A DNA stretch of 64,000 nt, from positions 7,858,408-7,922,407 of the forward strand of contig MU055609.1 in the NCBI GenBank assembly GCA_013239625.1, given 5' to 3'. Below, piece after piece: positions 22,506-38,108 of this stretch (within the stretch, counting starts at the first letter, position 1; each line of letters begins with the position of its first letter). Both the position numbers and the translations under genes were made by a program. This stretch comes from Lama guanicoe (lineage: Eukaryota). A model generated the notes under the pieces. The model was given only the letters and a program-made list of their open reading frames with translations, had not been told where the DNA came from and did not search any database.

Positions 22506-22959
22506 TGACTGCTTTATTTTTATCAGCTCACCTACTCCCTAAAACAATCCTAACAAGGTAGGCATCTTCACTGCCATTTACAACTGCGAAGGCTGATGTC
22601 CAGAGGCCTCAGATCCTAAGACATAAACCCATCTGTCTCTAAAGCTCATACAGGCTTTCAGTAGAGTTTCCTGATTTCAGACACAATATAAACCAGACTG
22701 TTCAAGTGGATGTAAAATAATGCCTCTGTTACTGGGGTGAGGTACATGGAAATTCAGAGTATATATGATGATTTCCAGGAGTCCCCAAAGCAGGAAGGAC
22801 CAATTACAAAGCTATACTATTTTATAAAGATAGCCAGCCAACCAATTCTCAAAGGAGTTTTTTATCTTTTTTTTAACTTACTCTTTCGGTTTGTCCTATA
22901 AAATAAGTTGCTCCAAATGACAGATCATCAAACATACATTTCAATAATAAACCTCAATA

Positions 22960-23626
22960 GGGAGCAGTCCCTCAGAGTGATCTGAGAGGCTGTCATCCCA
23001 GCCCGAGCCATTCTGCCCAATAAAACATAACTCTCAGCTTTTAGGCTGCACATTTATTTTAGTCAACAATTACGGTGACCACGATGAGGGACCCAGAGCA
23101 GACTTCTCCCCTTCGCCCGAACTCTATGAGGAACCGCAGCCTTGGTACCAGCAGAGGCCCTTTGTGCCCATCCGCCTCCTCGGGGAGTCCAGATGAATCT
23201 GGGAGACCATGAATCCACTGGCCTGGTAAAGCTACAGTATCTCCCACCTAGTGCTTTTTCTACATGTTCAAGTGGCCCCCAATCAGATGGCTGATTAGAT
23301 TTTCAATTTCTTCTGGAGCAACTGCTACCTGGAACTAATGTGTAAGATGGTAACTTCAGTTTGAGCACAAAATTCCTGGAACACAACCCTGTTACATCAC
23401 CACCAACCAATCAGAAGAAAGTCTGCACACAGTGGAAGATACAGAAGACTCTGTCCCCCTCCTCAAATGATTAAATGTGGTTAATATCCCCCTTTTCCCT
23501 TTAAAAACTTCCATGGACAAGTAGAATCTTCAGAGTTGGTTCTTAGACAAGAGACCACCTTCTCCCCAGGTCGCTGGCCTCCTGAATAAAACAATCTTTT
23601 CTTTACAAAAAAAAAAAAATTATAAT
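22960..23626 (+). mobile_element. L1-mediated processed copy of an ERV/LTR-derived transcript (R-U5, PBS, leader ... U3-R, poly(A))
   Basis: Perfect 17-bp TSD aataataaacctcaata (22943-22959, 23627-23643). AATAAA at 23585-23590 then A13 at 23607-23619. The 5' part has AATAAA at 23019-23024, LTR end ...gtcaaCA at 23068, and PBS-like cggtgaccacgatgagggac at 23073-23092. The 3' part has CCAAT at 23407 and TTTAAAA at about 23500. Confidence 0.85.
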
Positions 23627-26229
23627 AATAATAAACCTCAATAAATGAATAAACTAAACTAATCTGAACCCTATTTTTCTTCAGTCTGTTCAGGAAAGAA
23701 AAGTAATTCATAAGATTAAAAAGCTAGTACCAAGTACTGACACTTTGAAAAAAACCAAAAGGAAAAAAATTCTAGGTAGTGTACCAGGGACAATAGAAGC
23801 CTCAGTGACAACTGTCTCACCTTCAGCATTTATCACACGAAAAGAAGTGTTCAGACTGATGAGCCTGGCGCAATAAAAGATTCTTAATCGAAGCAATATT
23901 AAATTAAATTATGTTCAGAATATTCTTACAGACAGGAAAGAACAGTCACATATTTAAGTATTTTTAACAAGGGTTAAAACAAAAAGGAGGAATCTGGCAA
24001 ACTCCCAGCGAGCCAGAGACATGAACTGGAATTCTTAACTCCTGACTGGCTTACTCTCCCATGAAACAAAGGTCTGGATGTCAGACAGACAAGGCTTCCC
24101 TCCCGGGATGGATGTGAACCAACAGGTGATTCCACAAACACTGCTGATGTTGCTAGGGTTTAGCAACAAAGGAAGAGAGAGAAAAAGTGATCAGGTTAAT
24201 AGGAACTGCATACACTGTAATCAGCCTTTGGGCAAAATGAGACTGTCTGTGGGTGAATGTCTGTTGGGTGGAAGGATGTGCTGTGTGCAGGCAGTAAGAC
24301 AATGGCTTTCAAAACTCCCACCACACACTACTCCTAGAAAGGGCTCCTGATGCCATATTGGGATTATAATTAATTGACATAAGTTACGTGAGAGGAGTTG
24401 GCACAAAGGAGATGCTTTGTAAATATTAACTGAATATAAATCTACTAAAATTGCCTGTATTCAAAATAAAAGAAAATTCAGGGCTCTCAACAAAGGAGGT
24501 GAGATAAATAACTTTACTGTGCTGAGATCAGGCAGGATGTCATATATGAGTTGGAGAGGAAGGCTGTCTGAAAATCTTTGCCAATGTGTCTTTTTTGAAC
24601 TAAGGGCCTGGGGTTCTCTGGCGTGGACTTACCACTCCCAGCTGTGTGGAAGTCCCTGGCCCCATCATCAAGTTCACTGATAGTAGAGTACCATCAGGGT
24701 GCTCACCCTGCGGTCTGAGAGCTCAGTTCGGTTCCAACAAAGGTTTAGAAAGAAAGAAATTCCCCAGATGCATGGAAAGGAAAAGAAAGAAGAAACAAAA
24801 GTCCATTTCCCCTTTCCATCACCATTCAGCTTGCAAGTAAGAAGCAAAAGAAAGAAAGAAAAACCCAAGAACAAAAGAACTCACACAGAAATGGGTCTGC
24901 AGGGTGAAAATCGAGGAGGGATGCCATCTCCTTTTGTTATTATTATTTCTTTAAGCTAAGGGCTTCTCTGGGGATGGCTACACGAGGCAAGTGTGGCCAG
25001 CCTCACTACATGGAGTCAAACACCTGGGAGAGGAGAAAATGACGGAGGGTCTGGAATGTGTGAGACTCACAAATGTAAACACCGTCGAATGGCTCAGCTC
25101 TTTCGGGTGATGGAAAATGAAATGCCACCCTGACAATCGGGAAACCAAACAAACTCATACTTTAAATCATGCCCAGAACATGCTCAGTAATTTTCAACAA
25201 AAATGCCTAGTATATGATGGGACTATGCTGGTGCTAGAGGGATGGGTCCACACACTAGAGGGATGGCGCCACTTTCTGCTCTGCTTGGGAGTTGGTGAGA
25301 CTTTCCTAGGAGACCAAAGCCTCCATGTGCCTGCCCACATGCAGCAGAGGACCCCACCTCTTTCTTAATAAGGAAATGAGTTCATCATCAGTGGTAACTG
25401 TCCCAAATTGCCTTCTTCCCTTCTACCCTCAAACTTATCCCTAATGAAGCTCCATTCCTCCCTCCTGGCTTAGAATGTACAGTTCACAAAATGCTGGAGA
25501 AGAAAAGCTTCCCTGGGTAATGTTATGTATCACATCGTTCCTTTGAAGATGTATAACACATATTAGCACAGACTCGGAGAAGCAGTGATACAAAGAAACC
25601 CCTTTCTAACTTGGTTCATTTCAGTTTCCCAAACTCAGCTGGTCACAGAAAACTGGTTTTAAAAAAATATTATCACCTATTAAATATCTTTGGGAAAGAC
25701 TTTGAGATGGGATTCCAAAATGAACATTACTCTTTAAAACAGGACTGCATACTGTCTCAAGATAAAATTACCCTAAGGTTGGGGGGGGTATGGGCCTCAA
25801 CTCTGAGCTATGGTTCCTAAGATACCAGGGAGGGTAGCAGAAAACAAGGAGACCAAGACAGAATATTTCTCAGGTCTCTTCACTGCAATAGTCTATGATT
25901 CTGTTTCTCAGAAAACATCATTCAGACTTGTTTCTGGGATTATCTAGACAGGACAGAGATGCCCAGTGGGATGAGGGTCAGACATCTGTGTACATGTTTT
26001 CATGGCAGTACACGTTGTACAAGTCTGCTTCTAGCTCACTGTGTGTCAGTAGTCAGCGTGCAGTGAGCTTAAGGAGTTTCACTAGGAGAACCAAAGATCC
26101 AGAGGGAAAACACAATTGTGTGTGGCTGTATGGACACACCCAAGCAGGAGTACACACTTACAGGTATGTATACAGGCACATATGTGGACACTATCTATTC
26201 TTAACTAACTAGGCATATGACCCTGGGAG

Positions 26230-37637: not shown

Positions 37638-38108
<471 letters not shown>

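Follow-up and report, generated by a model that had tools for sequence, protein, structure and literature searches.

An intron of Lama guanicoe holds what is very likely a single retrocopy, made by the L1 retrotransposon, of a four-exon non-coding RNA that was started by an endogenous retrovirus (ERV) and terminated in an unrelated long terminal repeat (LTR). The insert occupies 667 bases (22960..23626, single copy) of the 64,000-nucleotide stretch analyzed here, which we call the window (GenBank assembly GCA_013239625.1, contig MU055609.1, positions 7,858,408 to 7,922,407, forward strand); features of the insert lie on the plus strand and are given in window positions. A previous, sequence-only reading had proposed that L1 made a cDNA fossil from a spliced RNA starting in one LTR and polyadenylated in another, and this proposal is supported by a source locus in which exons 2-4 are split by introns with AG and GT at their ends. 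Contigs of the assembly (genome G000) are coded below by C-numbers, and individual repeat loci by L-numbers.

The insert is bracketed by a target site duplication (TSD) of 17 bp (22943..22959 and 23627..23643), whose two copies, delimited by direct-repeat comparison and, for the 5' copy, also by nick context, are identical at 17/17 bases. Three pairs of exact 17-mers lie 100-5000 bp apart in the readable window, and only this pair brackets the insert. The nick context, TTTC/AATAA, is a loose match to the L1 endonuclease site, TC/AATA scoring 4/6 against TT/AAAA; motifs of the latter type are described at insertion sites in PMC5016936. At the 3' end, reading of the sequence gives a poly(A) tail (23607..23626) composed of 13 A residues (23607-23619), which begin 16 nt past an AATAAA at 23585, and 7 nt of AT-rich drift. 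The parent LTR has no A run at the position of this tail and runs on into U5. Both the length with its exact repeat and the AATAAA-16 nt-A13 end, as first described, were re-found. Other motifs inside the insert are a further AATAAA at 23019, CCAAT at 23407 and TTTAAAA at 23500. There is no open reading frame (ORF) of note, the frame opened by an ATG in exon 2 ending after 6 codons, and CpG retention gives no date (8 CpG in the insert, 3-15 across 14 copies).

One alternative is that a deleted or recombinant provirus was integrated here by integrase, which would account for R, U5 and a primer-binding site (PBS) at one end and U3 and R at the other. However, the 5' end has no U3 and the 3' end no U5, a poly(A) tail is present, the TSD is 17 bp and not 4 bp, the middle consists of unique genomic exons and the two LTRs are unrelated. 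The intron-split parent locus refutes this explanation, and we consider it extremely improbable.

Exon 1 comes from the 5' end of an ERV family that we call LTR-A. Searching the genome with the insert yielded 41 matches, 40 of 3076 candidates being scored; most matches spanned bases 1-247 at 83-87% identity, and the matched loci are the 5' LTR (~476 bp, TG..CA) and leader of this one family. The insert starts 28 nt beyond the start of the family's TATA box, and no U3 precedes 22960; of 44 other loci, 41 have a TATA-like U3 upstream of this position, it is deleted in one, and U3 is missing from the remaining two. R was assigned to 22960..23035 on the basis of TATA spacing, with its end placed from the poly(A) site of the retrocopy L025/L077 described below, and U5 to 23036..23068, ending in CA (23068). 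The AATAAA at 23019 was not used, and the RNA read through it. The PBS (23073..23092), compared with tRNA genes, is a tRNA-Arg site altered by two substitutions and by the insertion of 2 nt; in the LTR-A family it is complementary to genomic tRNA-Arg 3' ends (6/6 pattern matches were tRNA-Arg). The insertion is a subfamily trait, also found in four other proviruses, all on other contigs.

The rest of exon 1 (23093..23202) consists of ERV leader and ends at the major splice donor, as judged by alignment to proviral copies. This alignment breaks at GG/GTGAGT, with GT present there in 22/24 proviral loci (L012 was dropped from the count as the same place as L011, and L025 as a retrocopy). Because the similarity between insert and provirus ends at the viral GT donor, exon 1 corresponds to 22960-23202. 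Several proposals of the sequence-only reading thus stand, namely a 5' end in R without U3, a U5 ending in CA at 23068 followed by the altered Arg PBS, and a splice junction at 23202, which was put forward as uncertain and proved exact. The segment layout given with them had to be redrawn beyond that junction, as 23203-23331 contains two unique exons and the second LTR begins at 23332, making four exons in all.

The parent of the downstream part was located directly. On both C2198 and C1075, the middle 136 bases were found as two separate pieces with ~4 kb between them, and they also matched small contigs (8/8 candidates scored). Exon 2 (23203..23251, 49 nt of unique sequence) matches parent copies on C2198, C1075 and C6238 at 42/49, 43/49 and 44/49 bases, and exon 3 (23252..23331, 80 nt of unique sequence) matches those on C2198, C1075 and C5159 at 71/80 in all three; each copy has AG before and GT after. 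C2198 also holds the 3' part of the insert, on the same strand and 3 kb beyond exon 3, at 90% identity. This is exon 4 (23332..23606), the U3 and R of one solo copy of an LTR that we call LTR-B (248/275 identical). Among the 40 candidates scored out of 1133, only the parent block reaches 90%, other exon 4 matches being at or below 83%. The expected AG or GT stands at each of the five intron ends that could be tested (3/3, 3/3, 3/3, 3/3 and 1/1 parent copies), and the introns on C2198 measure 3864 and 2935 bp, N gaps included. By naive reckoning, three AG and two GT would arise by chance with a probability of 7e-7, a figure that overstates the case because short microhomologies let the joints slide by a few bases. 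Of the source locus that had been predicted, exons 2-4 were therefore found in order with AG/GT introns, whereas the exon 1 provirus was not located.

Exon 4 begins ~60 nt inside the U3 of the ~400-bp solo LTR-B, and cleavage occurred 16 nt downstream of the AATAAA at 23585. Compared by blastn, LTR-A and LTR-B show no resemblance (best E 0.97), in agreement with the earlier claim that the two are unrelated. In a tree of LTR-B copies that comprised 29 rows without the short L050, and whose bootstrap had not fully settled, the sole starred clade, at 100/100, joined the insert to the C2198 LTR (stem 0.092, tips 0.053 and 0.055). The two have 17 rare states in common, as well as a deletion of ~11 nt that was not seen in 12/12 other aligned copies. 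The acceptor AG is kept in 11/12 of these other copies, and LTR-B may thus be regarded as a ready-made last exon.

With regard to copy number, the exon 2-3 join was found contiguous only once (8/8 candidates scored), which argues that the insert does not belong to a retroposon family. The idea of a short, non-autonomous retroposon family, which was raised from the sequence alone, was accordingly abandoned. A form of it that places the insert in an undescribed SVA-like family amplified by L1 would be in keeping with the composite build, the LTR-derived 3' end and the fact that other retrocopies begin at the same LTR position. It is nevertheless very improbable: in addition to the single join, exon 4 at 90% occurs only in the parent block, the other retrocopies have different downstream exons, and the promoter of the insert is gone together with U3. 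SVA elements are composite, L1-mobilized and end at an ERV LTR poly(A) signal, and they number thousands of copies; unlike them, the insert is single copy and has no sign of re-mobilization.

Among the 44 other exon 1 loci, two (L025 and L137) are independent retrocopies that share the start base of the insert. L025/L077 (G000:C7292:4973938-4975700, plus strand) is an L1 retrocopy of a spliced subgenomic LTR-A ERV RNA, in which the viral donor is joined to the 3' internal region; its end is the LTR-A poly(A) site, and its TSD is ~12 bp with one mismatch. In L137 (G000:C55231:51671410-51671890, minus strand), LTR-A exon 1 is spliced to a 305-nt exon, which lies in the antisense U3 of a sister LTR family and ends in an A run without a clear AATAAA. 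This sister family has at least 40 copies, mostly with a polypyrimidine-AG acceptor. A pattern search for non-GT donors retrieved only the insert and two mutated proviral donors; as it missed both known side retrocopies, it gives no count.

These data suggest the following sequence of events. An LTR-A provirus, non-autonomous, class I-like and with an Arg PBS, started transcription at its normal start site, as the position of the first base shows. The RNA would have read through the poly(A) signal of the 5' LTR, and the viral major donor would have been spliced to two cryptic exons in the flank and from there into an acceptor within the U3 of the older solo LTR-B, whose AATAAA terminated the RNA. 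Exons 2-4 and their introns are present in the parent block, and exon 1 would have lain upstream of them in cis. The TSD, the tail and the heritability of the copy suggest that, in a germline or early embryonic cell, the full-length capped RNA was copied by L1 through target-primed reverse transcription and the cDNA pasted in antisense orientation into an intron of an ELAVL4-like gene. Later, the source block would have undergone three or more duplications; the provirus that had driven the RNA is probably deleted or missing from the assembly.

Several observations weigh against this account. No same-strand LTR-PBS-leader was found upstream of exon 2 on C1075 (635 kb, 762.9k-1,398k, with N gaps) or on C2198 (11 kb), nor in 97 kb of C8455 or 55 kb of C6947, and the exon 1 provirus was likewise not found in C6238, C4201 or C8523. 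C8455 spans most of the 3-kb gap nearest upstream. The cis search turned up only opposite-strand solo LTRs of another subfamily (C1075 at 814k and 1,349k; C8455 at 55k) and a 50-bp same-strand U5 scrap at 921k. Elsewhere in the assembly, any of the 44 loci has at most 4/18 of the rare exon 1 states of the insert, and a 27-mer search allowing up to 3 mismatches returned the insert as the sole match. The first base is G in the insert and the two other retrocopies, and C or T in the closest proviral relatives, so that it was likely copied from the cap; however, G also stands at position 1 in 15/42 proviral loci, and the cap reading is therefore only suggestive.

In the read data, the DNA or unstated-kind runs (n=14, five organisms) contained 0.47-0.82 of the sampled words. 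The comparison with reads covered the 3' flank up to 23780. Run X12, which may be near the assembly's own source, gave contigs over 22600-22989 and 23040-23167 with 0 differences, the first of which extends 30 bases into the insert, one base under the bridging rule. An empty site was not seen, run X18 having yielded repeat-family contigs only, none of them on the flank. From two RNA runs (X15 and X17), no exon-junction piece was among the contigs listed, these also giving repeat-family contigs only. The results from X18 and from the RNA runs are uninformative.

A provirus on C5617 was considered as a parent and rejected: it shares the PBS insertion, but has 2/18 rare states, and no exon 2-4 was found in its first 150 kb. 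The assembly splits the paralogues of the parent region among contigs only a few hundred bases long. Taken together, the absence of a matching locus and of a cis provirus and the fragmented assembly suggest that the driving provirus has probably been deleted or resides in unassembled sequence.

The same negative results leave some room for exon 1 having been joined in trans, either by trans-splicing of the leader of an abundant ERV transcript, made at another locus, to exon 2 on the KIF2B side or by an L1 template switch between RNAs. The lack of a cis provirus across 635 kb and three paralogous contigs is what this would predict, and the PBS variant of the insert is otherwise carried by four proviruses, all on other contigs. 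But the exon 1-2 join is exact at both donor and acceptor, which a template switch would not favor; a trans donor is absent as well, since proviruses with the same PBS share at most 4/18 private changes; and the parent region is duplicated, rearranged and fragmented in the assembly. We regard such a joining as unlikely, and it is equally unlikely that the insert is a fossil of trans-splicing, with the ERV leader spliced in the germline to host exons of an unlinked locus and the product frozen by L1.

The parent block is segmentally duplicated, with 93-98% identity between C1075 and its matches on C2198, C8455 and C6947. The insert is ~11% diverged from every copy of the block and thus appears older than the block duplication. 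Branch lengths give the order LTR-B (~0.15 changes per site), provirus (~0.09), retrocopy (~0.054) and duplication (~0.02-0.03); the terminal branch of exon 1 is ~0.09 changes per site in a tree of 31 rows. Under a comparatively slow mammalian rate, the retrocopy would be ~25 My old. At the rate of 2.5e-8 per 5-year generation given in PMC8605555, its age would be ~11 My.

An intronless kinesin-13 (KIF2B-like) gene lies 105 kb upstream of exon 2, on the opposite strand. Copies of it occur at G000:C1075:867400-869800, on C6947 and C8455 and on five small contigs, giving at least three copies within a block of 130 kb or more that has been duplicated. Of the five pieces that cover one particular codon, four share an in-frame TAG there and one, C31910, has TAC.

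In the window, the host gene is marked by an RRM1 exon of an ELAV/Hu protein (37860..38030, minus strand, limits approximate), identified by protein-domain evidence, and further exons of the gene were found 7-14 kb ahead of the window start. With host exons on both sides and the RRM1 exon on the minus strand, the insert is intronic and antisense to its host gene, which from the protein sequence we take to be ELAVL4. It is likely that the retrocopy is inert today.

It is also conceivable that the retrocopy has been kept as a regulatory element of the ELAVL4-like intron, as an antisense promoter or an interferon-responsive enhancer. Exon 4 has a 9-mer resembling an interferon-gamma activated site (GAS) at 23373-23381, beside the CCAAT and TATA-like boxes. 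LTR-B may also be MER41-like (MER41_Vpa). Camelid and ruminant MER41-group LTRs, MER41_Vpa being named among them, are described as interferon-inducible enhancers in bioRxiv 10.1101/2021.10.01.462810. However, the insert branch has evolved as fast as the parent branch (10 vs 12 changes), and the GAS-like motif is present in 11/29 rows of the LTR-B family, so it was simply inherited. A retained regulatory function is, in our opinion, quite unlikely.

The mechanism itself is already known, and the insert is a HERV-W-like L1 processed copy of an LTR-driven long non-coding RNA (lncRNA). HERV-W processed pseudogenes, according to PMC5016936 and PMC5537654, have a 5' R-U5, a 3' U3-R, poly(A), a TT/AAAA-like site and a TSD of 5-15 bp. 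As with those described there, the insert is an L1-made, ERV-started copy that begins with R-U5 without U3 and ends with U3-R, a tail and a long TSD. It differs in that HERV-W copies take both ends and a viral body from one provirus, whereas the insert ends in an unrelated solo LTR and has two cryptic host exons in its body; its TSD is 17 bp, compared with the 5-15 bp given in those texts, and the mammalian lineage and ERV family are different. L025, with both ends from the same ERV, has the HERV-W-type structure.

The parent RNA resembles the LTR-initiated chimeric lncRNAs of oocytes and embryos, such as those whose 5' exons stem from MuERV-L or with an MTA first exon and an ORR1F exon (Franke et al. 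2017, PMC5538554, Fig. 6C,D). In the examples of that work, as in the RNA proposed here, the LTR gives the promoter, start, first exon and donor, and the flank or a second LTR is exonized; those, however, are ERVL/MaLR-driven and living RNAs, whereas the parent of the insert comes from an Arg-PBS ERV with a donor in its leader and is known from the retrocopy alone. No description of this locus was found in the literature searched, subscription papers being outside its coverage. Ordinary processed pseudogenes show intron loss at exact splice sites, a tail, a TSD and no promoter. Like them, the insert is promoterless, spliced and, in this case, antisense and intronic; unlike theirs, its parent was a young, repeat-built non-coding gene and not a protein-coding one.

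The insert preserves to the base where a repeat-built germline RNA of roughly 11-25 My ago started, was spliced (three junctions) and was polyadenylated, and it has apparently outlived the promoter of that RNA. Two mix-and-match parts can be recognized, an ERV that brings a start and a donor, and an LTR family that has its own acceptor and poly(A) signal. Together with its two sister retrocopies, the insert suggests that a search for retrocopies could serve to catalogue LTR-driven transcripts now extinct in a lineage, with no need for RNA data from oocytes or embryos. It appears to us evenly balanced whether an extinct ERV-driven gene, its promoter later deleted, survives in this retrocopy alone, with LTR-A as a second ERV group whose RNAs L1 copies repeatedly.

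The LTR-A family fits the class I (ERV1)-like marks tested, namely TG..CA LTRs, a 4-bp TSD (perfect in the provirus L245) and a tRNA PBS. Pfam matches were obtained in 0/6 translations of the internal region (two copies, three sense frames, read through with X), and the ORF pieces of LTR-A proviruses were likewise without one. The family looks non-autonomous. ORF-less ERV1 clusters are noted for alpaca in PMC8605555, and the internal region, without Pfam matches, fits that description. L243-L245 are LTR-A proviruses of ~7.4 kb with an AT-rich internal part and no Pfam-detectable gag, pol or env. Tandem LTR-leader duplications occur in other LTR-A proviruses, with a period of ~1.0 kb in L011/L012 (G000:C7146:18.82 Mb) and of ~0.34 kb in L022 (C2417:120.7-121.3 kb).

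Elsewhere in the window, the other two exact 17-bp direct repeats (9019/9794 and 56077/57912) are possibly TSDs or repeat copies. A DPM3-like piece at 649-942 on the minus strand (Pfam DPM3, E 5e-7) is probably a processed pseudogene.

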